From: Escherichia coli
GTDB lineage: Bacteria; Pseudomonadota; Gammaproteobacteria; Enterobacterales; Enterobacteriaceae
DNA length: 64,000 nt
NCBI RefSeq assembly: GCF_013315695.1
Contig: NZ_CP054353.1
Direction: 5' to 3' (one strand)
Part shown: one piece after another, positions 3,746-37,385 of the stretch
Layout: every line of letters begins with the position of its first letter
How positions within the stretch are numbered: position 1 is the first letter of the stretch
Notes under the pieces: generated by a model
Told to the model about the DNA's origin: nothing
Databases searched by the model: none
The model's input: only the letters and a program-made list of their open reading frames with translations
Made by a program: the position numbers and the translations under genes

Positions 3746-4747
3746 ATGAGTAGTTGGCTTGCGATGCTGCAAGATGCCGCAGAGATGTTTGTGTTTCTCG
3801 CCGTCGAGCTTTCTTTGCTGTTTATAGTGATTAGTGCCGGTGTCAGCCTGATAAGACAAAAGGTGCCAGACCATAAAATCCAGCAGATGATGGGGGCCAG
3901 AAAAGGGAGAGGCTATCTCCTGGCTGCTCTGTTGGGAGCCGTTACCCCGTTCTGTAGTTGCTCGACAATACCCATGTTACGTGGATTGTTATCAGCGAAA
4001 GCCGGGTTTGGTCCGACCCTCACTTTTTTATTTGTTTCCCCATTACTTAATCCCATTATCGTCGGGTTAATGTGGGTGACCTTTGGCTGGAAAGTTACCT
4101 TGTTGTACGAGATTATCGCCGCCGGCGTCTCCGTACTTGCCAGTATTATCCTGGATTCCCTGGGATTTGAACGTCATATCATTGCCAGTAAAAGCTCATC
4201 AGCAAATTGTTGTGCTCCAGCCAAAACTTCGCCGGGGACGACATATACGCCAATAAAAGTGAGTTGCTGTAGTCCAGCGGCTAAAGCCATTGAGAAACCT
4301 GTAGTAAACTGTTGCAGTACCAAAGCTGTGGTAAGTATTAATCCCATAAAACTAGCCACCAAAGATGCGTTGCAACAGTTTAAAGATGTACTGCCATATC
4401 TTTTGTTAGGGGTATTAATAGGCTCTTTTATTTATGGCTTTATTCCCTCAGAGTGGATTGCCGCTCATGCAGGGGCAGATAATCCCTTCGCCATCCCATT
4501 GAGCGCCGTTGTTGGTATTCCGCTATATATCCGGGCAGAGGCAGTTATCCCTCTGGCATCTGTTTTGATGACAAAAGGAATGGGTCTGGGAGCATTAATG
4601 GCATTAATCATCGGCAGTGCCGGCGCAAGCCTGACGGAAGTGATATTACTTAAATCAATGTTCAGAATACCGATGATAGTTGCATTCCTGACGGTTATCT
4701 TAGGTATGGCTATCTTGATGGGCTATTTGACTCAAATGCTATTTTAA
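3746..4747 (+). CDS. arsP: ArsP-like permease (putative organoarsenical efflux permease) with a Cys-rich cytoplasmic loop
   Basis: Polytopic membrane ORF (3734..4747; start preferred at ATG 3746 after SD tgagg). Contains TPFCSCSTIP (nt 3944-3973), which matches the TPFcSCSxxP motif I recall for ArsP methylarsenite permeases; also has three CC pairs (NCCAP, SCCSP, NCCST). Confidence 0.6.
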   Translation: MSSWLAMLQDAAEMFVFLAVELSLLFIVISAGVSLIRQKVPDHKIQQMMGARKGRGYLLAALLGAVTPFCSCSTIPMLRGLLSAKAGFGPTLTFLFVSPLLNPIIVGLMWVTFGWKVTLLYEIIAAGVSVLASIILDSLGFERHIIASKSSSANCCAPAKTSPGTTYTPIKVSCCSPAAKAIEKPVVNCCSTKAVVSINPIKLATKDALQQFKDVLPYLLLGVLIGSFIYGFIPSEWIAAHAGADNPFAIPLSAVVGIPLYIRAEAVIPLASVLMTKGMGLGALMALIIGSAGASLTEVILLKSMFRIPMIVAFLTVILGMAILMGYLTQMLF

Positions 4748-5113
4748 ATAGATGCCAGCAGTAAACTATAAGGAGTATTGTGAGTGCCTTATCCTTCTGA
4801 GTAGAAAATCATAGATAGGATAATCCTTAAAAATAACAAATAACTTAACTAATGCTTTGAGAATGATGACGGATCCGTCAGTAAGTCATCAATCGACAAT
4901 CACCACGCAATCATGCTTCTCTGACATTTTATCGGAGAAGCAATGTCTCTTTGTCTCAGTATCATCCCCCTTTTAAAGGGTAGATTTCAGTCGCCAATAC
5001 AACACATTTTTAAATACACTTTAACCTGGTTCATTATTACACATCTAAAACATCACAAAAATATCACTTCACACACTATCGGAGAACATCATAACTTCGG
5101 TAATGACTCCAAC

Positions 5114-5617
5114 TTATTGATAGTGTTTTATGTTCAGATAATGCCCGATGACTTTGTCATGCAGCTCCACCGATTTTGAGAACGACAGCGACTTCCGTCC
5201 CAGCCGTGCCAGGTGCTGCCTCAGATTCAGGTTATGCCGCTCAATTCGCTGCGTATATCGCTTGCTGATTACGTGCAGCTTTCCCTTCAGGCGGGATTCA
5301 TACAGCGGCCAGCCATCCGTCATCCATATCACCACGTCAAAGGGTGACAGCAGGCTCATAAGACGCCCCAGCGTCGCCATAGTGCGTTCACCGAATACGT
5401 GCGCAACAACCGTCTTCCGGAGCCTGTCATACGCGTAAAACAGCCAGCGCTGGCGCGATTTAGCCCCGACATAGCCCCACTGTTCGTCCATTTCCGCGCA
5501 GACGATGACGTCACTGCCCGGCTGTATGCGCGAGGTTACCGACTGCGGCCTGAGTTTTTTAAGTGACGTAAAATCGTGTTGAGGCCAACGCCCATAATGC
5601 GGGCTGTTGCCCGGCAT
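5114..5617 (-). CDS. insB: IS1 InsB (expressed as InsAB' transposase by -1 frameshift)
   Basis: 167-aa [28 protein letters not shown]... overlapping the insA 3' end in the -1 frame. Confidence 0.9.
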
Positions 5618-5811
5618 CCAACGCCATTCATGGCCATATCAATGATTTTCTGGTGCGTACCGGGTTGAGAAGCGGTGTAAGTGAACTGCAGTTGCCATGT
5701 TTTACGGCAGTGAGAGCAGAGATAGCGCTGATGTCCGGCGGTGCTTTTGCCGTTACGCACCACCCCGTCAGTAGCTGAACAGGAGGGACAGCTGATAGAA
5801 ACAGAAGCCAC
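5536..5811 (-). CDS. insA: IS1 InsA (transposition inhibitor / N-terminal part of InsAB' transposase)
   Basis: 91-aa [40 protein letters not shown]... with zinc-finger Cys motifs; the A6C frameshift motif ttaaaaaactc is present at its 3' end. Confidence 0.95.
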
Positions 5812-6142
5812 TGGAGCACCTCAAAAACACCATCATACACTAAATCAGTAAGTTGGCAGCATCACCCATACAACGACATAATAAAATATCAGCAAGAATT
5901 CCAAAAAGAATGTTACAAGCAAGTTAAAGATTTTACAACACCCTCTCGATACAATAGAATTAAAAAATGGGCACAAATGTCTGAATATCAATTCGAAATA
6001 TTTCAACACGATACGTTTCATCCTAAAAAAATGTCATACGCACCTTATTTAAAGAGATCGCTACCTGATGAAAAAACTATAAATTATGGGGTAGAAATAG
6101 AAACACCAATTGGCAAAAGAATTCGCTGGTAATGACTCCAAC

Positions 6143-6646
6143 TTATTGATAGTGTTTTATGTTCAGATAATGCCCGATGACTTTGTCATGCAGCTCCACC
6201 GATTTTGAGAACGACAGCGACTTCCGTCCCAGCCGTGCCAGGTGCTGCCTCAGATTCAGGTTATGCCGCTCAATTCGCTGCGTATATCGCTTGCTGATTA
6301 CGTGCAGCTTTCCCTTCAGGCGGGATTCATACAGCGGCCAGCCATCCGTCATCCATATCACCACGTCAAAGGGTGACAGCAGGCTCATAAGACGCCCCAG
6401 CGTCGCCATAGTGCGTTCACCGAATACGTGCGCAACAACCGTCTTCCGGAGCCTGTCATACGCGTAAAACAGCCAGCGCTGGCGCGATTTAGCCCCGACA
6501 TAGCCCCACTGTTCGTCCATTTCCGCGCAGACGATGACGTCACTGCCCGGCTGTATGCGCGAGGTTACCGACTGCGGCCTGAGTTTTTTAAGTGACGTAA
6601 AATCGTGTTGAGGCCAACGCCCATAATGCGGGCTGTTGCCCGGCAT
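6143..6646 (-). CDS. insB: IS1 InsB (InsAB' by frameshift)
   Basis: Identical 167-aa InsB ORF. Confidence 0.9.
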
Positions 6647-6840
6647 CCAACGCCATTCATGGCCATATCAATGATTTTCTGGTGCGTACCGGGTTGAGAA
6701 GCGGTGTAAGTGAACTGCAGTTGCCATGTTTTACGGCAGTGAGAGCAGAGATAGCGCTGATGTCCGGCGGTGCTTTTGCCGTTACGCACCACCCCGTCAG
6801 TAGCTGAACAGGAGGGACAGCTGATAGAAACAGAAGCCAC
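6565..6840 (-). CDS. insA: IS1 InsA
   Basis: Identical 91-aa InsA ORF. Confidence 0.95.
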
Positions 6841-7181
6841 TGGAGCACCTCAAAAACACCATCATACACTAAATCAGTAAGTTGGCAGCATCACCGAATT
6901 CGCTTATCAAATCATTACCAGAATATAATCCCATAATATTGAACATTAGCGCTTTATAATCATTGAATAAAAATAGATTTTATGCACCTTTAAAAAAAGG
7001 CTATTTTATGGGGCGATGGATACTCATGTCACGCCCCAAAATTAACAGAATTAAACTAAACAGAAGGGATATAAACATCAGACAGGTTTACGTTACTATC
7101 AGGCATATCGCCTCAGAATCAGATGAAAACTATAAAGAAATATCTATTATGGTTTTAATATTTGTTGATAAGGATAGTAAC

Positions 7182-8491: not shown

Positions 8492-9520
8492 TTATGCAGT
8501 AACGCCTTCCGGTATCAGCGAAGCAATTTGCTTACGCCATTGCGCTTGCTCCTGTTCGCCTTCTGTACGTTGACCATAAAGTTGCGCTATCTGCGTACCA
8601 TCATGGGCAAACAATTCCAGACTGGTCACATAACCGTCACTAGCAGGTTTACGGGTTACCCAGGTTTCAGCAATGCTCTCTTCTAATAGATGAAGAGTAA
8701 ACGTCGGGTTAAAAATATTCAGCCAACCTTTCATTGGCACCACTTTTTCTACCACGCCAGTGAAAATCTGTACGCAGCCACGGTTGCCAACAAACACCAT
8801 GATTTCATTGCCATCCTGCTGTGCAGATTCAAGAATTTGCGCCAACGCACTGTTGGATACTTTGCAGGCCAAATCGTCTGCCACCAGATTGAACGCCTGT
8901 TGGCGCGTCAGGTTGTGGCGCTTGAGCAACGTAAAAAACTGATGAACGTCGGTCATCGCCCGCCACTCTTGCTCGACCACACTGGCATCGGCTCGCGTTT
9001 GAACAACTGGCGCATCAACGGCTTTTAACTCAAGCGGCGTATTCTCATCGGTGATAAACCGTGCCAGAAGCTCACTCCATGCCGCCATATCGGTATTGTC
9101 GGTGGCATAAACTTTTAGTAATGCATCGCCCTGATGATCAAAGAACTGAATACTCTGGCGTTCGCCACGAGCCGTGTTTTCTTTGATGTGGAAAACACTG
9201 GCCCATTGATTGAGAAACAGACGTAAATCCAGCGCGCGCGGATTGAGGATCAATCCGGCATGTCCGTTCAAATGCTGGTTTGTGAACGCACCAACTTGCT
9301 CATGGACTGCATATTCATTACGACAAATACATTTGGTTTCGCCAACACTTTCGAGCGCCGCCAGAATTTCACGAATATCGCCGCGCATCCGCCACGCGTC
9401 GTGCGTGACGCGCGCAAATGCCAGTTCTGCTTCGCTGATATTCATTAAACCTGCGATGTCACGCGCGTACTTTCCGGGATTTTGTTCTTTTAACTCAAGC
9501 CAGCGTGTGTAGTGGTTCAT
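8492..9520 (-). CDS. chuS: Heme-degrading / heme oxygenase protein ChuS (ShuS/HemS family)
   Basis: 342-aa ORF MNHYTRWLELKEQNPGKYARDIAGL...; immediately downstream of chuA on the same strand, as in chu/shu loci. Confidence 0.85.
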   Translation of the reverse strand: MNHYTRWLELKEQNPGKYARDIAGLMNISEAELAFARVTHDAWRMRGDIREILAALESVGETKCICRNEYAVHEQVGAFTNQHLNGHAGLILNPRALDLRLFLNQWASVFHIKENTARGERQSIQFFDHQGDALLKVYATDNTDMAAWSELLARFITDENTPLELKAVDAPVVQTRADASVVEQEWRAMTDVHQFFTLLKRHNLTRQQAFNLVADDLACKVSNSALAQILESAQQDGNEIMVFVGNRGCVQIFTGVVEKVVPMKGWLNIFNPTFTLHLLEESIAETWVTRKPASDGYVTSLELFAHDGTQIAQLYGQRTEGEQEQAQWRKQIASLIPEGVTA

Positions 9521-9568
9521 TGTCTCTCTTCCTTCCAGATAAATGCCCCGAAATATCGGGGCAGATGA

Positions 9569-11551
9569 TTACCATTGATAACTCACGAAAATTTTTCCGT
9601 TACGACCATCCTGTGGGATGCCTTGCGGCGACCAGTACTCTTTATCGAAGGCGTTGCCCAATACCAGAGTAGTGGTCATGCCTTTGAGCGCCTGTTGTCC
9701 TTGATAACTGACGTAAAAATCATTCACACCATAGCCAGGTTGTTTGCTGTAACTGCTGCTGATATGTGTTGAGCGATCGGCAAACGTACCGACCCAACCA
9801 ACAGAGAAGCCACTGTGAGCGATCGGAATATTCAGGGTACTGGTAACGGTATCCGGGTTAATGCTGGAGATATATTCCCCAGTATCGGTGTCTTTGCCGC
9901 GGGTACGGTTATAGGCCACATCAAGGCTAAACAGATCAGTGGTATATTTCGTCATTACATCCCAGCCCCAGATTTTGGCGTTCGGGACGTTATACGACAT
10001 AGTTGTCGCCGCCGCGAAATCGACGGTCGTGGAGATGTAATCCTTCGCTTTGGTATCAAAGTAGCTGGCTTTAAATTCCAGAGCATCATTGGACAACATC
10101 AGGTCATCAAAACGCAGCCCAAAACCGTACTCCTGAGTTTCGTTAGTTTCCGGACGTAAGTTCGGGTTTGGCACCCAATAGTTGGTATAGAAGCGACCAA
10201 TCGAGAAGTGCTTAGAATCGTTATACATTTCGCCCATCGTCGGGGCGCGGAATGCCTGGGCATATGAGCCAAATAACATCAGCCAGTTGGTCGGGTTGAT
10301 AGTCATCCCCGCACGAGATGACCATTTGTCAGCATCAACATCTTTGTAGCCGTCGCTGCTACCGCGATAACTGTCATAGCGGGTTCCGCCAAGCAGGGTA
10401 ATCGGCAGATCGCGTAAGGTGATCTCATCCTGTAGCCAACCAGAGCTAAAATCGATTTTTGCTTGCGGGAAGCCCGTGGTCGCGCCACCCGGATGTTGTT
10501 CCTGACGATAATACTCACCGCCATATGTCAGTAAGTGAGAAGCGAAACTGTCGGCAAATAGAGTGGAACGGTTCTCCAGCCTGGCTCCTTTTGTTATCTG
10601 TTCACGATACTCGCCGGAACTCCCCGTGTTTTGCGCATTAATACGGACTTCCGACCAGTAAATTTTTGCATCTGCATTTAACCAGTCGTTGCCCTGCGGG
10701 GCGAGTTTATAAGAAAGCTGCGCATCGCGTTGAATTGTTGAACGATCAACCATCGGGTTGCTGCTATCAGAAGCCTCAACAGTCTGCGGATTTTTTGGTT
10801 CACGCGCGTCGTTGTTGTAGTAACGCACTAAACCGCTCAGAGACTGGGCTGAATCAATTTGCCAGGTCCCTTTCGCCAGCATGTTATTAATGGACTCGTC
10901 ATTCGGCGCGGTTTCACCATTGCTCTGGCGTAAATCACCCCGATCGCGACTGGACCAGGCCACAATACCATCCAGATTTTCAGTTCGCCCAAACGCGCTC
11001 GCGCCTAATCCCAGGCTATGGTCCCCCGTGCCGCCAGTACCAAAGACACGAAAACCACTACTTTGTCCTTCCTGCAATAAATCTTTTGCATCGACCGTAT
11101 CGTAGGAGATCACCCCACCCAGCGCGCCACTGCCATACAGTAATGCTGAAGGTCCGCGAACAATCTCAACACGCTTGATCAGCGCCGGATCAAGAAAAGT
11201 ACCATTCAGGTGTCCGGTATCCGTTCCCTGGCGAACACCATCGACAAGAACCAGCACGCCGCGATGATCATAGCCACGCATATTTACATCCTGACCGTTG
11301 GTTCGTCCGGTACCATCAAGAGTAATTCCAGGAACATGACGCAGCAAATCAGTGGCTGAAGTAGCAGTTTGATTTTCAGGAGCGGAAGTGTCGATAACGC
11401 TGACCATCATAGGCGCTTCGAAGGAACTACGTGCATTCCCCGTTGCCGTAACGGTCATGGTTTCAGTAGCAAAAGCAAATGTTGGCAAGGTGGCAGAAAC
11501 AGCCAAAGCCAACAAACTCAAACGCAACGAGGTAAATTGCGGACGTGACAT
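9569..11551 (-). CDS. chuA: TonB-dependent outer-membrane heme/hemoglobin receptor ChuA (ShuA)
   Basis: 660-aa ORF with signal peptide, N-terminal plug region and C-terminal terminal-F beta-barrel residue (…VSYQW); Fur box upstream. Confidence 0.9.
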   Translation of the reverse strand: MSRPQFTSLRLSLLALAVSATLPTFAFATETMTVTATGNARSSFEAPMMVSVIDTSAPENQTATSATDLLRHVPGITLDGTGRTNGQDVNMRGYDHRGVLVLVDGVRQGTDTGHLNGTFLDPALIKRVEIVRGPSALLYGSGALGGVISYDTVDAKDLLQEGQSSGFRVFGTGGTGDHSLGLGASAFGRTENLDGIVAWSSRDRGDLRQSNGETAPNDESINNMLAKGTWQIDSAQSLSGLVRYYNNDAREPKNPQTVEASDSSNPMVDRSTIQRDAQLSYKLAPQGNDWLNADAKIYWSEVRINAQNTGSSGEYREQITKGARLENRSTLFADSFASHLLTYGGEYYRQEQHPGGATTGFPQAKIDFSSGWLQDEITLRDLPITLLGGTRYDSYRGSSDGYKDVDADKWSSRAGMTINPTNWLMLFGSYAQAFRAPTMGEMYNDSKHFSIGRFYTNYWVPNPNLRPETNETQEYGFGLRFDDLMLSNDALEFKASYFDTKAKDYISTTVDFAAATTMSYNVPNAKIWGWDVMTKYTTDLFSLDVAYNRTRGKDTDTGEYISSINPDTVTSTLNIPIAHSGFSVGWVGTFADRSTHISSSYSKQPGYGVNDFYVSYQGQQALKGMTTTLVLGNAFDKEYWSPQGIPQDGRNGKIFVSYQW

Positions 11552-11585
11552 AGCGATTCTCCATGAGGAAAATAAAAAATGCTGG
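11552..11585 (-). promoter_or_regulatory. chuA translation-initiation region with U-rich tract next to the SD (candidate FourU RNA thermometer)
   Basis: Minus-strand mRNA reads ...auuuuuuauuuuccucauggagaaucgcuAUG; a U-run adjacent to the GGAG Shine-Dalgarno; a FourU thermometer has been reported for shuA (from memory). Confidence 0.4.
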
Positions 11586-11841
11586 CTGCCTGGGTTAATA
11601 CCGGGGTGGCTGGCGAAAAATAAATTTATTTACAATTCAAATGATTAGATATCACCACGGGAAGCTATTAGCGTATATATCCCGTAAAATTGCCGAATAT
11701 TTCTGATAATTCAGCAAAAGCACGCCCTCTTTGTCAGGCAAAGTAGTACGCCACGTCTGAAGTGAAGAGTGCTGTGCGTTTTCCCTTACAAAAGATATGA
11801 TTTTGTTATCCATGATGTCATATTTTGTTAAACTCAAACGT

Positions 11842-11860
11842 GATAATGAGAATTATTATC
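11842..11860. promoter_or_regulatory. Fur box (iron-responsive operator), about 290 bp upstream of chuA
   Basis: gataatgagaattattatc matches the Fur consensus GATAATGATAATCATTATC at 17/19 positions. Confidence 0.75.
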
Positions 11861-12192
11861 GATCAATTTTTTATGATCAAGCTTTTTTTAACCGCCATTA
11901 ACACAATAAACAGGGGGTTATGAAATCTATCCAGCATCCAGAAAACCATCCTGTGTTTATGGCTATCCCCCCACAACCTCATCACAAAACGTTGTCGTTA
12001 ACAGTGATAATTTTCTCTTCTCTTTGCTCTGCAAGCCGCGATATCTCCGGGTTCTCAGCTTTTTCCCGCGCTGAAATTTAATCGGTAACAAGAACATTAG
12101 CTGACGAAGCATCTTGATAAAAATCAAAAATAAATACGCTTGTAACGCCTTGCGTATTGAATCGACGGTTGTATTTCATATATAACTCAAAT

Positions 12193-12211
12193 GATAATCA
12201 TGATCATTCTC
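12193..12211. promoter_or_regulatory. Fur box upstream of chuT
   Basis: gataatcatgatcattctc matches the Fur consensus at 16/19 positions; 24 bp before the ATG at 12235. Confidence 0.7.
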
Positions 12212-12234
12212 AATTTGATAAGAGTTCTCACATT

Positions 12235-13149
12235 ATGCCAAGGATCATCACCAGGCCGTTTCTTTTTTCCCCACTGACGTTATGTATTTCAGCCGTGGCC
12301 TCTGCCGCGAAGACCATGGTAAAACGAAAAAAATTGTTTACGGCATTACTGGCTCTTAGCTGGACTTTTAGCGTAACGGCTGCCGAACGTATCGTGGTCG
12401 CAGGAGGATCGCTGACGGAGCTAATCTACGCGATGGGCGCTGGCAAACGCGTGGTTGGTGTCGATGAAACGACATCTTATCCACCAGAAACCGCCAAACT
12501 GCCGCATATTGGTTACTGGAAACAACTCAGCAGCGAAGGCATTTTGTCACTTCGCCCGGATAGCGTAATTACCTGGCAGGATGCCGGGCCACAAATTGTG
12601 CTCGACCAACTACGAGCGCAGAAAGTCAACGTCGTCACCCTGCCGCGTGTGCCTGCCACCCTTGAGCAGATGTACGCCAACATTCGCCAACTGGCAAAAA
12701 CGCTACAGGTTCCTGAACAAGGCGAGGCGCTGGTGACACAGATCAACCAACGCCTGGAGCGAGTACAGCAAAACGTGGCGGCCAAAAAAGCCCCGGTTAA
12801 AGCCATGTTTATTCTCTCCGCAGGCGGAAGTGCGCCACAGGTTGCCGGTAAAGGCAGCGTCGCGGACGCCATTCTTTCGCTTGCCGGAGCAGAAAACGTC
12901 GCTACCCACCAGCAGTACAAAAGCTACAGCGCGGAATCGCTGATTGCGGCTAACCCTGAAGTGATTGTCGTCACCTCACAAATGGTCGATGGCGATATTA
13001 ATCGGCTACGTTCTATTGCCGGAATTACCCACACCGCCGCCTGGAAGAACCAGCGCATTATCACCGTTGATCAAAACCTGATTCTGGGAATGGGTCCGCG
13101 TATTGCTGATGTCGTTGAGTCTTTACACCAGCAGCTTTGGCCGCAATAA
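12235..13149 (+). CDS. chuT: Periplasmic heme-binding protein ChuT (ABC transporter substrate-binding); start uncertain
   Basis: ORF 12157..13149. The ATG at 12235 lies just after the Fur box; an internal ATG at 12316 (MVKRKKLFTALLALSWTFSVTAA-ERIVVAGG) gives a canonical signal peptide and may be the true start. Confidence 0.8.
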   Translation: MPRIITRPFLFSPLTLCISAVASAAKTMVKRKKLFTALLALSWTFSVTAAERIVVAGGSLTELIYAMGAGKRVVGVDETTSYPPETAKLPHIGYWKQLSSEGILSLRPDSVITWQDAGPQIVLDQLRAQKVNVVTLPRVPATLEQMYANIRQLAKTLQVPEQGEALVTQINQRLERVQQNVAAKKAPVKAMFILSAGGSAPQVAGKGSVADAILSLAGAENVATHQQYKSYSAESLIAANPEVIVVTSQMVDGDINRLRSIAGITHTAAWKNQRIITVDQNLILGMGPRIADVVESLHQQLWPQ

Positions 13150-13168
13150 ATGGATTTAAATCAGACGA

Positions 13169-14506
13169 ATGAACACAAATAACACCCTGGATCTCACGCC
13201 ACATTTTGCTTTAGACGGTGATCAGCCATTTAAAGACAGGCGCGCCATGATGCCGTTTCGTGGGGCCATTCCAGTTGCCAAAGAGCAACTGGCACAGACC
13301 TGGCAAGAGATGCTCAATCAAACGGTATCACCACGTAAGCGACTGGTTTATCTACACATTCCTTTTTGTGCAACACACTGCACGTTTTGTGGTTTTTATC
13401 AGAACCGTTTTAATGAAGATGCGTGTGCTCATTATACCGACGCCCTGATTCGTGAAATAGAACGGGAAGCAGACAGCGTATTGCATCAGTCTGCCCCCAT
13501 CCACGCGGTCTATTTCGGTGGCGGTACGCCTTCCGCGCTTTCGGCACACGATTTGGCCAGAATCATCACCACATTACGAGAAAAGCTGCCACTGGCCCCT
13601 GATTGTGAAATCACTATCGAAGGCCGGGTACTGAATTTTGACGCTGAGCGAATCGATGCTTGCCTTGATGCAGGAGCAAACCGCTTCTCAATTGGTATTC
13701 AGTCGTTTAACAGCAAAATCCGCAAGAAAATGGCCCGCACCTCGGATGGCCCAACCGCTATTGCGTTTATGGAAAGCTTGGTCAAACGCGACCGTGCCGC
13801 GGTGGTCTGTGACCTGCTGTTTGGTCTGCCGGGTCAGGATGCGCAAACCTGGGGAGAAGATCTGGCTATTGCCCGCGATATCGGTCTCGACGGCGTCGAT
13901 CTCTATGCGCTCAATGTCCTGCCCAATACACCGCTGGGCAAAGCCGTGGAAAATGGGCGCACTACCGTGCCCTCTCCGGCAGAACGTCGCGATCTTTACC
14001 TGCAAGGGTGTGATTTTATGGACGATGCCGGTTGGCGCTGCATCAGTAACAGCCACTGGGGCCGTACCACACGCGAACGCAATCTCTATAACCTGCTGAT
14101 TAAACAAGGTGCCGATTGTCTGGCCTTTGGTTCTGGAGCCGGTGGTTCGATTAATGGTTACTCCTGGATGAACGAACGCAATCTTCAGACCTGGCATGAA
14201 TCCGTCGCGGCAGGCAAAAAACCGCTGATGATGATCATGCGTAACGCCGAACGTAACGCGCAGTGGCGTCATACCTTGCAGTCGGGCATTGAAACGGCGC
14301 GTGTACCGCTGGACGAACTTACGCCACATGCCGAAAAACTCGCGCCGTTACTGGCCCAGTGGCACCAAAAAGGCTTAAGCCGCGATGCGTCAACGTGTCT
14401 GCGGTTGACCAATGAAGGTCGTTTCTGGGCAAGCAACATTTTGCAGTCTCTTAATGAACTGATTCAGGTACTTAATGCGCCAGCAATTGCGCTTGAAAAA
14501 CCATAA
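13169..14506 (+). CDS. chuW: Radical SAM heme-degrading enzyme ChuW (HemN-like, anaerobilin synthase)
   Basis: 445-aa ORF with radical SAM CxxxCxxC motif (CATHCTFC). Confidence 0.85.
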   Translation: MNTNNTLDLTPHFALDGDQPFKDRRAMMPFRGAIPVAKEQLAQTWQEMLNQTVSPRKRLVYLHIPFCATHCTFCGFYQNRFNEDACAHYTDALIREIEREADSVLHQSAPIHAVYFGGGTPSALSAHDLARIITTLREKLPLAPDCEITIEGRVLNFDAERIDACLDAGANRFSIGIQSFNSKIRKKMARTSDGPTAIAFMESLVKRDRAAVVCDLLFGLPGQDAQTWGEDLAIARDIGLDGVDLYALNVLPNTPLGKAVENGRTTVPSPAERRDLYLQGCDFMDDAGWRCISNSHWGRTTRERNLYNLLIKQGADCLAFGSGAGGSINGYSWMNERNLQTWHESVAAGKKPLMMIMRNAERNAQWRHTLQSGIETARVPLDELTPHAEKLAPLLAQWHQKGLSRDASTCLRLTNEGRFWASNILQSLNELIQVLNAPAIALEKP

Positions 14507-14518
14507 CAGGAGTGATTT

Positions 14519-15013
14519 ATGAGCCATGTCTCGTTACAGGAATTTTTGAAAACGGAGCCGGACGGTACGCTGGAGGCGATCGCCGAACAATACAACACCA
14601 CGCTGCTGGAGGTAGTGAAAAATCTGCCCTCTCCGACTGTTGTGTCAGGTGATAAATTCGATACTGTCTGGGATACCGTCTGCGAATGGGGCAACGTCAC
14701 CACGTTAGTACATACTGCCGATGTCATCCTCGAATTTAGCGGCGAACTGCCTTCGGGTTTCCATCGCCACGGCTATTTCAACCTACGCGGAAAGCACGGC
14801 ATGTCCGGGCATATCAAAGCAGAAAACTGCACACATATTGCCTTGATCGAACGTAAATTTATGGGCATGGACACCGCATCCATTCTCTTTTTCAACAAAG
14901 AAGGCAGCGCCATGCTGAAAATCTTCCTCGGCAGGGATGACCATCGTCAGCTCCTGAGCGAACAGGTCAGCGCCTTCCATGCTCTGGCAGCATCGTTAAA
15001 GGAACACGCCTGA
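14519..15013 (+). CDS. chuX: Heme utilization protein ChuX
   Basis: 164-aa ORF in conserved position between chuW and chuY. Confidence 0.8.
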   Translation: MSHVSLQEFLKTEPDGTLEAIAEQYNTTLLEVVKNLPSPTVVSGDKFDTVWDTVCEWGNVTTLVHTADVILEFSGELPSGFHRHGYFNLRGKHGMSGHIKAENCTHIALIERKFMGMDTASILFFNKEGSAMLKIFLGRDDHRQLLSEQVSAFHALAASLKEHA

Positions 15014-15636
15014 TGACACCGTGGCTACTCTTTGGCGCAGGCGGAAAAGGTGTGGGTGCCAGAACGCTTGAACTGGCGCTGGCGGAACAACGTCCGGTCG
15101 TTGCTGTCATTCGTCATGCCGATGCCGCCACGAAACTGGCGCAACAAGGCGTACAGGTTTTTACAGGCGACGCCTGTGATGCCAGCGTAGTCGCGGCTGC
15201 TTGCCGCGCAGCTGGCCCGGATGCGCTTATCATCTCAACAATGGGCGGAGCTCAGGATTATCTGGCGCACAGAACAGTGATTGACGAGGCCGAGAAGGCT
15301 GGCATCAGTCGCATGATTCTGGTGACCTCTTTGGGATGCGGCGATAGCTGGCCGTTTTTATCAGAGCGGGCAAAGGCTGCGTTTGGTCAGGCGGTACGGG
15401 AAAAAACGCTGGCGGAAAGCTGGTTGCAAACCAGCCAGCTTGATTATGCCATTCTCCGCCCTGGCGGTCTGCTTGATGGTGCGGCAACGGGCAAAGCACA
15501 ACGGATACAAAATCAGGAGTGTCATGGTTTTGTTAACCGTGCTGATGTCGCCGCACATATCCATGAACTGGCAAATGCGCCAGCACTTAACCAGCAGGTC
15601 TACAGTCTGATTGAACCGGACCTGAAACCGGCGTGA
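15013..15636 (+). CDS. chuY: NAD(P)-dependent reductase ChuY (anaerobilin reductase)
   Basis: 207-aa ORF with N-terminal Rossmann-type GAGGKGVGA motif; start overlaps the chuX stop. Confidence 0.8.
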   Translation: MTPWLLFGAGGKGVGARTLELALAEQRPVVAVIRHADAATKLAQQGVQVFTGDACDASVVAAACRAAGPDALIISTMGGAQDYLAHRTVIDEAEKAGISRMILVTSLGCGDSWPFLSERAKAAFGQAVREKTLAESWLQTSQLDYAILRPGGLLDGAATGKAQRIQNQECHGFVNRADVAAHIHELANAPALNQQVYSLIEPDLKPA

Positions 15637-15684
15637 TCCCCCGGCGCGGTATGTCCGCGCCGTAATGTCGTAACGGAGTTTTGC

Positions 15685-16677
15685 GTGCTCAAGGATTCAC
15701 TCTCTTCCGCCAGGGTCTTTATGGGGCTATCACTATTATTGCTCGCTCTGGTGCTGTTTGGTGCCAGTCAGGGAGCGTTAAAGATCAGTTTTGATGCCCT
15801 TTTTGATGAGGAATACCGCGATATCTGGCTCAATATTCGTCTACCACGGGTTTTGCTGGCGGTGCTGGTAGGTGCAGCGTTGGCAACCGCCGGGGTAATT
15901 ATGCAAGGGCTTTTTCGCAACCCAATGGCTGACCCTGGATTACTTGGCGTCAGTAGCGGTTCTGCATTAATGGTTGGCGTTGCTATTGTGCTGCCCTTCT
16001 CCTTCCCAGTGGTGCTGGTGCTCTATGAGCAAATGGTGTTTGCCATTGCCGGAAGTTTAGTGGTCTGCACCATCATTTTTCTCATCACGCAGCGCCATCG
16101 CGATGGCAGCATGATGCAATTATTACTCGCCGGTATCGCCATCAATGCCCTGTGCGGCGCAGCGATCGGCATCCTGAGCTATATCGGCGATGAGCAGCAG
16201 CTACGACAACTCACATTGTGGATGATGGGCAATCTTGGACAGGCGCAATGGCCGACGTTATTGGTTGCCAGTTCATTCATCCTACCGGCCATTATCGCAA
16301 CAACTTGTCTCGCCGGAACGCTGAATTTACTGCAGCTCGGTGATGAAGAAGCCCACTACCTCGGCGTGAACGTTAAGCGTAAACGCCAGCAATTACTGTT
16401 AGTGAGCTCACTGCTCGTTGGTGCCGCCGTATCGGTAAGCGGCATTATCGGCTTTATTGGCCTGGTGATCCCGCATCTGATTCGTATGACTACCGGGGCA
16501 AATCACCGCTGGCTAATCCCTTGCTCCGCCCTCGCCGGAGCCTGTTTATTGCTGATGGCAGACACGCTTGCCCGCACACTGGTACAGCCAGCAGAAATGC
16601 CCGTGGGATTATTAACCAGCCTGCTTGGTGGCCCTTATTTTATGTGGTTGATTCTGCGCAACCGGAGGATCACATGA
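15685..16677 (+). CDS. chuU: Heme ABC transporter permease ChuU
   Basis: 330-aa polytopic membrane protein of the FecCD/BtuC family. Confidence 0.85.
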
Positions 16678-17444
16678 TCAGCGCCCAGAATCTGGTTTAT
16701 AGCCTTCAGGGGCGGCGTCTGACTGATAATGTCTCGCTGACTTTTCCCGGTGGGGAAATTGTTGCCATCCTCGGCCCTAATGGTGCGGGAAAATCTACGC
16801 TGCTTCGCCAGCTAACCGGCTATCTTCAACCTGATAGCGGCGAATGTCGGTTGTTTAATAAGCCATTAAATGAATGGTCGATTACTGAACTGGCGAAACA
16901 CCGGGCCGTGATGCGTCAAAATAGCCACATGGCGTTTCCATTCAGCGTACAAGAAGTTATCCAGATGGGGCGGCATCCGCATCGTACTGGTAATCAGGAT
17001 AATGAAACAGCACAAATAATGGCGTTATGTGACTGTCAGGCGTTAGCAAACCGCGACTACCGGCAATTATCCGGTGGTGAACAACAGCGCGTGCAATTAG
17101 CGCGCCTGCTGGTGCAACTCTGGGAACCTACTCCCTCACCGAAATGGTTATTTCTTGATGAACCAACTTCGGCGCTGGATATTCACCATCAGCAGCACTT
17201 GTTTCGTTTATTACGCCAGTTAGTTCACGAACGGCAGTTCAATGTTTGTTGCGTATTGCACGATCTAAATCTTGCCGCGCGTTATGCAGACCGTGTTGTA
17301 TTAATGCAAAAAGGAAAGGTTATCGCAAATGGTAAGCCGCAGGACGTATTGACACAGCAGGCGCTGACAATGCTCTACGGCGCGGATATTACCGTACTTA
17401 AAGATCCTGCCAACCATTCACCACTGATCGTCCTCGATCATTAA
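16674..17444 (+). CDS. chuV: Heme ABC transporter ATP-binding protein ChuV (HmuV)
   Basis: ORF 16521..17444; start set to ATG 16674 ([11 protein letters not shown]...) after RBS ggagga, overlapping the chuU stop by 4 bp (ATGA); Walker [10 protein letters not shown] and signature LSGGEQQR. Confidence 0.85.
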
Positions 17445-31794: not shown

Positions 31795-33474
<1,680 letters not shown>

Positions 33475-33524
33475 TATTTTTACAGCCAGCCGCTAACTTC
33501 CTGCTGGCTGTAAAATTATCCTCT

Positions 33525-34127
33525 TCAGGAGGAGATATTTAACATCATTGCCGCCTGGGTGCGATTTTTCACTTCCAGACGGCGATACAGGGATTCCAGA
33601 TGCGCTTTTACCGTTCCGGTACTGATATTCAGCGCCCTGCCGATCTCCTTATTTGATTCGCCCGCCGCTAACATGGTTAAAATCTCCCGCTGGCGGGCGC
33701 TTAACGATTTGAGATCTTTAATGTCCTTTTCCGGCGTCGTTCGCCAGTCTCCCGGCAGAAACATCATCCCCATCGCCGCACTATTTACCGCCAACGCAAA
33801 TGTCTCGACGGTTGAATCACGAGGCACAATGGCCAGCACATTAAAATGGATAACCTCCTGTAACCACCGTTTATTGCAATCCGTCGCCGTAATTAACACC
33901 TTAACCTCAGGAAACTGCACCACGGTTTTTTGCAGCAACCAGTAGCAAAACTCACCATCCTGATCGCCATCGAGCATCACTAAGGCTTCAGGGTAACTTT
34001 CCAGCTTTTGCCATAACTCGTCTGCCTGACCGGCCCCCTGAATACTCACTCCTGGAATACGCTGCTGTAAACTGATTTTCATTCCATGAATAAATATTGA
34101 CTGCCTGTCAAACATGACTATTTGCAT
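33525..34127 (-). CDS. yhjB: LuxR/FixJ-family response-regulator-like protein YhjB
   Basis: 200-aa ORF with C-terminal LuxR HTH (LSARQREILTMLAAGESNKEIG...). Confidence 0.85.
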   Translation of the reverse strand: MQIVMFDRQSIFIHGMKISLQQRIPGVSIQGAGQADELWQKLESYPEALVMLDGDQDGEFCYWLLQKTVVQFPEVKVLITATDCNKRWLQEVIHFNVLAIVPRDSTVETFALAVNSAAMGMMFLPGDWRTTPEKDIKDLKSLSARQREILTMLAAGESNKEIGRALNISTGTVKAHLESLYRRLEVKNRTQAAMMLNISS

Positions 34128-34645
34128 AACTGAATCTCCACCTGAATACGTTAAAAAGACTTAAGTAGTGGAAGGGTATTACCCGCGAGAAAAAATAAGA
34201 ATTCGCCATTTGGCGGTGGCCATTCTACAGAGATGACGCGTAGAAAATAGTTACCGATATAAATAGTTACAGCTAAACGCCTGAAATTACATGTCGAGTG
34301 CACTATTTAAAACAATTTTGAGGATTTCCTTATATTGATGGTTAGTACGCATGCAATTAAAAATGAAACTCCGCGACCACAAGCAAAAATAACAAATGGC
34401 AATGAGACAAAAATAAGCACAAATAGCCAACACGTCCTCTGTTCACTTTAAAGGGAATCGCTGAAAAAAACGCTCTGTTTAGGGAAATTCACCTTTCTCA
34501 TAAAGCTATTCCGCCCTTTTCCTGCTGAGAAATCGCCACATTCGTCATGACAACATTGTGAAACCCGGCATTAGATGTTAGAAAAAACAAGGTGATGCTG
34601 CCAACTTACTGATTTAGTGTATGATGGTGTTTTTGAGGTGCTCCA

Positions 34646-34921
34646 GTGGCTTCTGTTTCTATCAGCTGTCCCTCCTGTTCAGCTACTGACGGGGTGGTGC
34701 GTAACGGCAAAAGCACCGCCGGACATCAGCGCTATCTCTGCTCTCACTGCCGTAAAACATGGCAACTGCAGTTCACTTACACCGCTTCTCAACCCGGTAC
34801 GCACCAGAAAATCATTGATATGGCCATGAATGGCGTTGGATGCCGGGCAACAGCCCGCATTATGGGCGTTGGCCTCAACACGATTTTACGTCACTTAAAA
34901 AACTCAGGCCGCAGTCGGTAA
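34646..34921 (+). CDS. insA: IS1 InsA
   Basis: Identical 91-aa InsA ORF. Confidence 0.95.
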
Positions 34922-35343
34922 CCTCGCGCATACAGCCGGGCAGTGACGTCATCGTCTGCGCGGAAATGGACGAACAGTGGGGCTATGTCGGGGCTAAATC
35001 GCGCCAGCGCTGGCTGTTTTACGCGTATGACAGGCTCCGGAAGACGGTTGTTGCGCACGTATTCGGTGAACGCACTATGGCGACGCTGGGGCGTCTTATG
35101 AGCCTGCTGTCACCCTTTGACGTGGTGATATGGATGACGGATGGCTGGCCGCTGTATGAATCCCGCCTGAAGGGAAAGCTGCACGTAATCAGCAAGCGAT
35201 ATACGCAGCGAATTGAGCGGCATAACCTGAATCTGAGGCAGCACCTGGCACGGCTGGGACGGAAGTCGCTGTCGTTCTCAAAATCGGTGGAGCTGCATGA
35301 CAAAGTCATCGGGCATTATCTGAACATAAAACACTATCAATAA
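34840..35343 (+). CDS. insB: IS1 InsB (InsAB' by frameshift)
   Basis: Identical 167-aa InsB ORF. Confidence 0.9.
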
Positions 35344-35423
35344 GTTGGAGTCATTACCAAAAAACAATAAACAATGCGATATGCGCGCTACTGTTTCGCT
35401 GTGAACAACAATCGGTCAAAGAA

Positions 35424-36323
35424 ATGGATAAAATTCACGCAATGCAGTTGTTCATCAAAGTCGCTGAGCTGGAAAGTTTTTCCCGCGCAGCGGATTTCTT
35501 TGCTTTGCCAAAGGGAAGTGTTTCGCGCCAGATACAGGCACTGGAACATCAACTTGGCACCCAGCTTCTCCAGCGCACCACGCGGCGGGTCAAACTCACG
35601 CCAGAAGGCATGACCTATTATCAACGGGCAAAAGATGTGTTGAGTAATCTCAACGAACTGGACGGTCTGTTTCAACAGGATGCCACCAGTATCAGCGGTA
35701 AATTACGCATCGACATCCCGCCAGGAATCGCGAAAAGCCTGTTACTGCCGCGCCTGTCGGAATTTCTCTATCTGCATCCGGGAATTGAGCTGGAGCTGAG
35801 TAGCCATGACCGTCCGGTAGATATTCTTCACGATGGTTTTGATTGCGTGATACGCACTGGCGCGTTACCGGAAGATGGCGTTATCGCCCGTCCCCTCGGC
35901 AAACTGACCGTGGTCAATTGTGCCAGTCCACACTATCTGACGCGCTTTGGTTATCCTCAAAGCCCCGACGATCTGACTTCGCACGCAATAGTGCGTTACA
36001 CACCGCACCTGGGTGTACATCCGTTAGGTTTTGAGGTTGCCAGCGTTAATGGCGTCCAGTGGTTTAAGTCTGGCGGCATGTTGACGGTAAACAGTCGCGA
36101 AAACTATCTCGCCGCCGGTCTTGCCGGTCTGGGGATTATTCAGATCCCGCGCATTGCCGTGCGCGAAGCCCTGCGTGCCGGGCGGCTTATTGAAGTGTTG
36201 CCTGGCTACCGTGCCGAGCCGCTGTCCCTTTCACTGGTTTATCCGCAGCGTCGGGAGCTTTCCCGGCGTGTAAACCTGTTTATGCAGTGGCTGGCTGGCG
36301 TAATGAAAGAGTACCTGGACTGA
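35424..36323 (+). CDS. yhjC: LysR-family transcriptional regulator YhjC (RcdB)
   Basis: 299-aa ORF with N-terminal LysR HTH (MQLFIKVAELESFSRAADFFALPKGSVSRQIQALE). Confidence 0.85.
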   Translation: MDKIHAMQLFIKVAELESFSRAADFFALPKGSVSRQIQALEHQLGTQLLQRTTRRVKLTPEGMTYYQRAKDVLSNLNELDGLFQQDATSISGKLRIDIPPGIAKSLLLPRLSEFLYLHPGIELELSSHDRPVDILHDGFDCVIRTGALPEDGVIARPLGKLTVVNCASPHYLTRFGYPQSPDDLTSHAIVRYTPHLGVHPLGFEVASVNGVQWFKSGGMLTVNSRENYLAAGLAGLGIIQIPRIAVREALRAGRLIEVLPGYRAEPLSLSLVYPQRRELSRRVNLFMQWLAGVMKEYLD

Positions 36324-36371
36324 CCGACTATACTTTTTAAGAATGACCACGACAGAAGGACAAAAGAGCGG

Positions 36372-37385
36372 ATGACGCAGGAAAACGAGATCAAACGTCC
36401 CACCCAGGATCTGGAGCACGAGCCGATTAAGCAGTTGGATAATAGCGAGAAAGGCGGCAAAGTTAGCCAGGCGCTGGAAACCGTCACCACTACTGCCGAG
36501 AAAGTCCAACGCCAACCGGTTATTGCGCACCTGATTCGCGCGACAGAACGCTTTAACGATCGGCTGGGTAACCAGTTTGGTGCGGCTATCACCTATTTCT
36601 CATTTTTGTCGATGATCCCGATTTTGATGGTGTCGTTTGCCGCAGGGGGCTTTGTGCTGGCCTCCCATCCGATGTTGCTACAGGATATCTTCGACAAAAT
36701 TCTGCAAAACATCAGCGATCCGACGCTAGCCGCCACGTTGAAAAACACCATCAACACCGCCGTTCAGCAGCGTACGACTGTAGGGCTTGTCGGCCTGGCG
36801 GTGGCACTTTATTCCGGCATCAACTGGATGGGTAACCTGCGTGAAGCGATTCGTGCCCAGTCGCGCGATGTCTGGGAACGCTCGCCGCAAGATCAGGAGA
36901 AGTTCTGGGTAAAATATCTGCGTGATTTTATTTCGCTGATTGGTTTGTTGATTGCGCTGATTGTGACGCTTTCTATCACCTCGGTTGCCGGTTCTGCGCA
37001 GCAAATGATTATTAGCGCCCTGCACCTGAACAGCATTGAGTGGCTGAAACCGACGTGGCGGTTGATTGGCCTGGCGATTTCCATCTTCGCCAACTATCTG
37101 CTTTTCTTCTGGATCTTCTGGCGGTTACCGCGCCACCGTCCGCGCAAAAAAGCCCTGATTCGCGGAACATTTCTGGCTGCTATTGGTTTTGAAGTGATTA
37201 AAATTGTGATGACTTACACCCTGCCATCGCTGATGAAATCCCCCTCTGGCGCAGCATTTGGTTCCGTGCTGGGGCTGATGGCATTTTTCTACTTCTTCGC
37301 CCGTTTGACGCTGTTTTGCGCGGCGTGGATTGCCACCGCCGAATATAAAGACGACCCGCGAATGCCGGGGAAAACGCAGCGGTAA
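36372..37385 (+). CDS. yhjD: Inner membrane protein YhjD (YihY/virulence factor BrkB family)
   Basis: 337-aa multi-TM ORF. Confidence 0.8.
   Translation: MTQENEIKRPTQDLEHEPIKQLDNSEKGGKVSQALETVTTTAEKVQRQPVIAHLIRATERFNDRLGNQFGAAITYFSFLSMIPILMVSFAAGGFVLASHPMLLQDIFDKILQNISDPTLAATLKNTINTAVQQRTTVGLVGLAVALYSGINWMGNLREAIRAQSRDVWERSPQDQEKFWVKYLRDFISLIGLLIALIVTLSITSVAGSAQQMIISALHLNSIEWLKPTWRLIGLAISIFANYLLFFWIFWRLPRHRPRKKALIRGTFLAAIGFEVIKIVMTYTLPSLMKSPSGAAFGSVLGLMAFFYFFARLTLFCAAWIATAEYKDDPRMPGKTQR

Follow-up and report, generated by a model that had tools for sequence, protein, structure and literature searches.

The window analysed here is a stretch of 64,000 nucleotides of Escherichia coli DNA (contig NZ_CP054353.1), in which a single IS1 element lies between two divergent regulatory genes, yhjB and rcdB (also named yhjC). 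The genes and the parts of the element are arranged as follows.

31825-33474, + strand: treF
33525-34127, - strand: yhjB, LuxR/GerE-type regulator of 200 amino acids, intact (Pfam GerE; RefSeq)
34582-34590, no strand: left copy of the 9-bp target-site duplication AAAAAACAA, equivalent to K-12 NC_000913.3 3672349-3672357
34591-35358, + strand: complete IS1 of the IS1A type, 768 bp, with exact terminal repeats
34591-34613, + strand: left terminal repeat (IRL) GGTGATGCTGCCAACTTACTGAT, exact match, carrying on the - strand an outward -35-like TTGGCA (34604-34599)
34646-34921, + strand: insA, open reading frame of 91 amino acids (Pfam Zn_ribbon_InsA and HTH_Tnp_IS1)
34840-35343, + strand: insB' frame, open reading frame of 167 amino acids (Pfam DDE_Tnp_IS1, E = 2e-78)
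35336-35358, + strand: right terminal repeat (IRR) GGTAATGACTCCAACTTATTGAT, present as its reverse complement and facing rcdB, with TTGGAG at 35345-35350
35359-35367, no strand: right copy of the target-site duplication AAAAAACAA, abutting the right end of IS1
35424-36323, + strand: rcdB (= yhjC), LysR-family regulator of 299 amino acids, intact (Pfam HTH_1 and LysR_substrate; RefSeq)
36372-37385, + strand: yhjD

The yhjB-rcdB intergenic region is 519 bp long with a GC content of 38.7%, and in K-12 there is no IS1 between the two genes. A first-pass annotation of this DNA had placed the element 66 bp upstream of the yhjC start and upstream of the divergent yhjB. These positions were found to be right, as 65 bp lie between the end of IS1 and the rcdB ATG (35424), which puts the final IS1 base at -66, and 463 bp separate the left end of the element from the yhjB ATG (34127, - strand).

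The assignment of the element to IS1 was likewise well founded. Both canonical 23-mer terminal repeats were found as exact matches at the two ends of a 768-bp sequence, and the products of insA and insB' scored far above the Pfam cut-offs. A -1 frameshift motif, TTAAAAAAC (A6C), begins at 34895, and frameshifting at this motif is predicted to join the two frames into the insA/insB' transposase, as is expected of IS1. Compared with the IS1A of K-12 MG1655 (NC_000913.3 19796-20563), which is also 768 bp long, the window copy is identical at 767 of 768 bases, and the two have in common the terminal repeats, the insA and insB' frames, the A6C motif and a 9-bp target duplication, differing at position 444 (G instead of T in the window copy) and in chromosomal location. 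In RefSeq the same element is labelled 'IS1-like element IS1A family transposase, programmed frameshift' in the genomes AF3 and MSB1_4I. In length, repeats, reading frames, target duplication and identity to the reference, that is, in all of the defining features that were tested, the element is an IS1.

The sequence AAAAAACAA occurs twice in the whole 64-kb window, and each of the two copies directly touches one end of IS1. Since such a word is frequent by chance (1.29 occurrences expected per window), it is the positions of the copies and not their number that serve as evidence. The first-pass annotation had described a simple IS1 insertion with a 9-bp duplication, in a span (34582-35367) that comprises the element and both duplication copies, and the duplication is indeed perfect on both flanks. 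When the empty site was rebuilt by deleting IS1 and one duplication copy, at least 26 other complete E. coli genomes were found to hold the resulting 600-bp sequence unbroken and with 100% identity. The uninterrupted allele of these genomes has a single copy of AAAAAACAA, which upholds the description of the insertion as simple. Among 5,426 complete E. coli genomes, on the other hand, the exact IS1 junction was found in two only, namely AF3 (NZ_OZ547117.1, from a blood culture in the UK) and MSB1_4I (NZ_LR898874.1, from an Australian rectal swab). Because the junction is this rare and the empty site is intact in so many genomes, the insertion is a simple and recent transposition with no other change at the site. 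An assembly artefact is ruled out by the identical junction in two independent complete assemblies. The allele is private to a single lineage, as an IS1 at this site was found in the window's lineage only. That lineage lies outside phylogroups A and B1; its empty-site allele is 99.7% identical to that of strain SMS-3-5, and the window carries a chu/shu heme-uptake cluster (8492-17444) between dctR and yhiD.

The window contains four copies of IS1 (5099-5866 -, 6128-6895 -, 34591-35358 + and 59050-59817 -) that are 100% identical to one another, in keeping with a recent insertion, and the copy between yhjB and rcdB is the single one in the plus orientation, as had been claimed earlier. The nearest identical copies in inverted orientation are 27.7 kb away on its left and 23.7 kb away on its right. 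The two leftmost copies have the same orientation and lie 261 bp apart near slp. Of these, the copy at 5099-5866 lacks a target duplication and so points to a deletion or rearrangement in association with it; the copy at 6128-6895 is flanked by a 9-bp duplication, GAATTCGCT, and is missing from both AF3 and MSB1_4I. From this absence it follows that the copy at 6128-6895 transposed very recently, into a gene for a hypothetical protein, and that the window represents a third, very close relative of the two strains; over 6896-64000 it is colinear with AF3 and MSB1_4I, with 7 and 3 mismatches, respectively, in 57 kb. IS1 is still mobile in the window's lineage, and the lineage is rich in IS1, since AF3 and MSB1_4I each hold at least 40 IS1 matches per record.

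The fourth copy, at 59050-59817 (- strand; flanks 58984-61146), also has no target duplication; a 66-bp remnant of bcsR borders it on one side and bcsE, truncated at the N-terminus, on the other. At this copy both cellulose operons have lost their 5' ends together with the divergent promoter region, and the window strain is therefore probably cellulose-negative. The same bcs deletion is found in AF3 and MSB1_4I. In AF3 the bcsA gene has, in addition, an internal stop, and in the window bcsA is intact.

Both genes that flank the insertion encode regulators. RcdB has been described as an activator of csgD, in work cited in PMC9068703, and its Shigella counterpart YhjC as an activator of virF (PMC8218686). 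In K-12, the yhjB/yhjC site is marked as bound by H-NS (PMC10294691, Table 1), and both genes of this H-NS-bound region gave low RNA-seq counts (PMC10294691). A PhoB site at yhjB/yhjC was reported as a weak ChIP-seq peak with a score of 2, and the RNA levels of yhjB and yhjC did not depend on PhoB (PMC10294691); in another study, binding of PhoB in vitro was of low affinity, and reporter and array results were inconsistent (PMC3465305). Literature on yhjB together with IS1 yielded an unrelated mention only. When 33400-36400 was compared with Rfam at E <= 1, no RNA family was found, and the insertion thus has no known small RNA or riboswitch to disrupt.

It was further suggested in the first-pass annotation that IS1 cuts yhjC off from its native promoter, or else provides an outward or hybrid promoter. 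A mapped transcription start for rcdB or yhjB was not found, as the Cappable-seq supplements were without coordinates near the locus and the Kim 2012 and Cho 2014 supplements were without a yhjC or yhjB entry. Promoter candidates were called by consensus and PWM scans, in which the PWM is a simple approximation built on consensus frequencies. The relevant sites are as follows.

34546-34563, - strand: published weak PhoB motif TTTCACAATGTTGTCATG, now on the yhjB side of IS1
34556-34584, + strand: nearest native rightward candidate, TTGTGA-17-TAGAAA with TGn (PWM 7.5, prediction)
34575-34604, - strand: candidate hybrid promoter toward yhjB, TTGGCA-18-TAACAT, with the -35 in IS1 and the -10 in the flank (PWM 11.3)
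35345-35375, + strand: weak hybrid candidates toward rcdB, TGGAGT-18-AACAAT (PWM 5.3), TTGGAG-19-AACAAT (4.9) and TTGGAG-17-TAAACA (3.6)

In the empty site, all rightward sigma-70-like candidates with a PWM score of at least 6.2 lie to the left of the insertion point. The -10 of the nearest one, TTGTGA-17-TAGAAA, stops 6 bp short of the insertion point, and transcription from it would be expected to start at the insertion site itself. This candidate is intact in the IS1 allele and is predicted to read into IRL instead of rcdB. With these candidates and the PhoB site left of IS1, the proposed separation of yhjC from its native promoter holds in silico. A promoter within the 65 bp that remain upstream of rcdB was also considered and rejected, as the best scores there were 5.3 or less and each required the end of IS1 as its -35. 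A comparison of the rcdB sequence from -130 to the ATG among E. coli was uninformative, because this stretch is almost invariant within the species.

On the other side of the element the picture is different. It was reported that the inverted repeat of IS1 carries an outward -35 from which hybrid promoters form, with an effect that depends on the flank (PMC8764528), and that the 5' terminus of IS1 carries a partial promoter (PMC5526668). The geometry of such a promoter, an outward -35 with 16-18 bp to a -10 in the flank, is predicted on the IRL side of the window copy, where TTGGCA-18-TAACAT outscores all other sites of the region in the PWM scan (11.3); with ATCGCA, the poor -35 that it has in the empty site, this -10 scores 5.1. 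The suggestion of an outward or hybrid promoter is thus best supported, by prediction, in the direction of yhjB, whereas toward yhjC the candidates are weak (3.6-5.3). In a study of ST131, IS1 was found upstream of afaA, osmB and ugd, likewise in 5' regulatory regions and with an outward -35 that can pair with a -10 in the flank (PMC8764528). Expression was measured there, and afaA rose, osmB fell and ugd did not change (PMC8764528), while the hybrid of the window is a predicted one and faces yhjB, not the adjacent rcdB.

We have found that the window is not alone in carrying IS1 at this location. In a survey of E. coli genomes, queries consisted of an IS1 end fused to the first 200 bp of rcdB, and the matches were mapped on the K-12 locus, where 3895 marks the yhjB ATG and 4415 the rcdB ATG. 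The following are simple insertions with a target duplication.

3931-3939, - orientation: cM2a
4050-4057, - orientation: AREA_502
4081-4088, - orientation: YPE10
4090-4098, + orientation: HCP30S3_I2
4090-4098, + orientation: KUEC74, a 96.5% IS1 variant in a divergent background and hence independent
4109-4117, - orientation: CFSAN061762
4220-4228, + orientation: FG92-1 group, 11 genomes
4239-4247, + orientation: MB51
4283-4290, - orientation: F467
4350-4358, + orientation: the window's lineage
4409-4417, + orientation: 14EC001, with a duplication, AAAGAAATG, that takes in the rcdB ATG

As in the window, the other natural insertions in the 519-bp region have duplications of 8-9 bp and leave the flanking genes intact; they differ in position (3931 to 4417 of the K-12 reference), in IS1 variant (93-100% identical) and in orientation, both of which occur. 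In 14EC001 (IS1 at 1233-2000 of its locus) as few as 6 native bases are left upstream of an otherwise intact rcdB. HCP30S3_I2 and KUEC74 (IS1 at 1233-2000 of each locus) have the same site, orientation and duplication, GGATTTCCT, and yet their IS1 variants are 99.9% and 96.5% identical to the window copy, respectively, and their backgrounds are divergent, which makes this a case of target re-use at the nucleotide level.

In addition to the simple insertions, an IS1 within yhjB itself (3801-3810, with a 10-bp duplication) is common to 13 complete genomes, the GZ04-0086 group. Nested-deletion derivatives of this allele were seen in Ecol_AZ155, where the deletion ends at 4239, and in strain 4848, where it ends at 4283; both keep the left yhjB::IS1 junction and have lost the 5' end of yhjB together with 344-388 bp of the intergenic region. 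The two deletion ends coincide exactly with the independent simple insertions of MB51 and F467. Further deletion joins end at 4258 (G1/2 group) and at 3949 (GCU-H1, with a start in gad). In GCU-H1 (59-2000 of its locus), a 93.4% IS1 variant directly links what is left of a glutamate decarboxylase gene with the yhjB-rcdB intergenic region, implying an IS1-associated deletion of the remaining gad, ccp, treF and yhjB. An initial count of 15 independent insertions was accordingly corrected, as several of these represent the one yhjB::IS1 allele and its nested deletions and one a large deletion from gad. The totals are 11 independent simple insertions and 4 deletion joins, or 15 target joins at 12 positions, three of which were used twice. 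With 6 simple insertions in the + and 5 in the - orientation, no orientation bias is seen. The spacing of yhjB and rcdB is intact in 5,368 of 5,423 genomes, and about 41 of the 55 exceptions involve IS1.

As controls, neighbouring genes were searched with the same query design, with the right end of IS1 facing the gene.

rcdB: 35 genomes, 9 distinct junction positions
gadE: 7 genomes, 5 distinct junction positions
treF: 8 genomes, 3 distinct junction positions
yhjE: 0 genomes, 0 distinct junction positions

The yhjB-rcdB region is a recurrent target of IS1, and its enrichment is to be read against three neighbouring controls only, with event counts that are confounded by clonality and by genomes rich in IS1. 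Literature cited in PMC12428005 has tied IS1 transposition to H-NS. The region itself is rich in AT, as noted above. A preference of IS1 for AT-rich DNA is known and is the simplest reading of the recurrence; the lack of orientation bias and of clustering does not require selection and is compatible with it.

Taken together, the evidence shows a recent transposition of an IS1A-type element into an AT-rich region in a lineage in which IS1 is expanding, and the whole account, with a preferred target and consequences for promoters that we infer, is very probable. A functional-looking IS1 transposed lately into the yhjB-rcdB region and made its usual 9-bp duplication, and the preference of IS1 for this region, not a special function, is most likely what brought it there. 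The 768 bp of the element would separate rcdB from every upstream promoter-like site and from the weak PhoB site. IS1 is strongly transcriptionally polar in both orientations. As only weak hybrid sites at the right end face rcdB, transcription of this gene would most likely be reduced to their output, and on the side of yhjB the TTGGCA of IRL, 18 bp from TAACAT in the flank, may act as a new and good-looking promoter. Such effects on rcdB and yhjB expression are suggested by the promoter scans. Given that yhjB and rcdB are low in K-12 in a region bound by H-NS (PMC10294691), there was perhaps little native transcription to lose.

This last point bears on a reading to be taken seriously, though we do not favor it, in which the two genes are largely silent or dispensable in the niche of the strain and the insertion is a neutral passenger that persists by drift under a high IS1 load. 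It agrees with the low RNA-seq counts and H-NS binding in K-12 (PMC10294691), with the finding that natural isolates tolerate IS1 at positions from -6 to -484 of rcdB, in either orientation, as well as within yhjB, and with measurements elsewhere in which some upstream IS1 insertions made no change (PMC8764528). However, both flanking genes stay intact, and it is somewhat unlikely that 768 bp placed at a predicted start, together with a new high-scoring outward promoter, would have zero effect. It was also proposed in the first-pass annotation that the element could pair with the other copies to mediate inversions, and a role as a recombination substrate that reorganises the region by such pairing was considered. 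With the element in the + orientation and the three other identical 768-bp copies in the -, inverted partners do exist, and the copies at 5099-5866 and 59050-59817, being without duplications, indicate IS1-associated rearrangements nearby. Nevertheless, the window, AF3 and MSB1_4I are colinear over 6896-64000, and no inversion between IS1 copies was seen in either of the two relatives compared. Inversion is a generic possibility of such copies, and as an account of this insertion it is highly improbable.

Selection presents a further alternative. Insertions of IS1 and IS5 activate the H-NS-silenced bgl operon and the upstream region of flhDC, and insertions between yhjB and rcdB might in the same way be selected for relieving silencing or for changing the expression of RcdB and/or YhjB. 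The likeness is that the region is AT-rich, reported as H-NS-bound in K-12, and hit repeatedly and independently of orientation in natural isolates. The orientation independence that relief of silencing would predict is seen in the 11 simple insertions (6 + and 5 -), independent insertions have re-used exact sites, events exceed those in the three neighbouring control regions, and two insertion alleles are common to 11 and 13 genomes. Moreover, a second IS1 in the lineage has deleted the promoter region of bcs, another biofilm-matrix locus. Against this, IS1 prefers AT-rich DNA in any case, the H-NS-bound control gadE likewise gathers insertions, the insertions are not clustered at one regulatory position, and, as a difference from bgl and flhDC, the locus is affected in only about 1% of genomes, with no linked phenotype. 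We therefore regard adaptive rewiring as unlikely. Its stronger form, also by analogy, would make the yhjB-rcdB region a natural evolutionary switch, in which IS1 hits are selected to rewire RcdB and/or the orphan regulator YhjB, and through them the control of curli and biofilm, and, together with loss of the bcs promoter, retune the biofilm matrix, and this we hold to be quite doubtful.

Recent transposition into a preferred target is nothing new in kind, as it involves a known element, annotated by RefSeq in two genomes, and mechanisms that are found in textbooks. Polarity, hybrid promoters and IS-mediated deletion and inversion all belong to these mechanisms. Taken alone, one further copy of the best-known bacterial insertion sequence is of small importance, and the allele is of modest value as a natural one with which transcription of rcdB and yhjB can be tested. 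The pattern of IS1 at this locus could be used for studying the choice of targets or selection on RcdB and YhjB expression. If the region did act as an evolutionary switch, the insertion and the loss at bcs would together shut down or retune production of the biofilm matrix.
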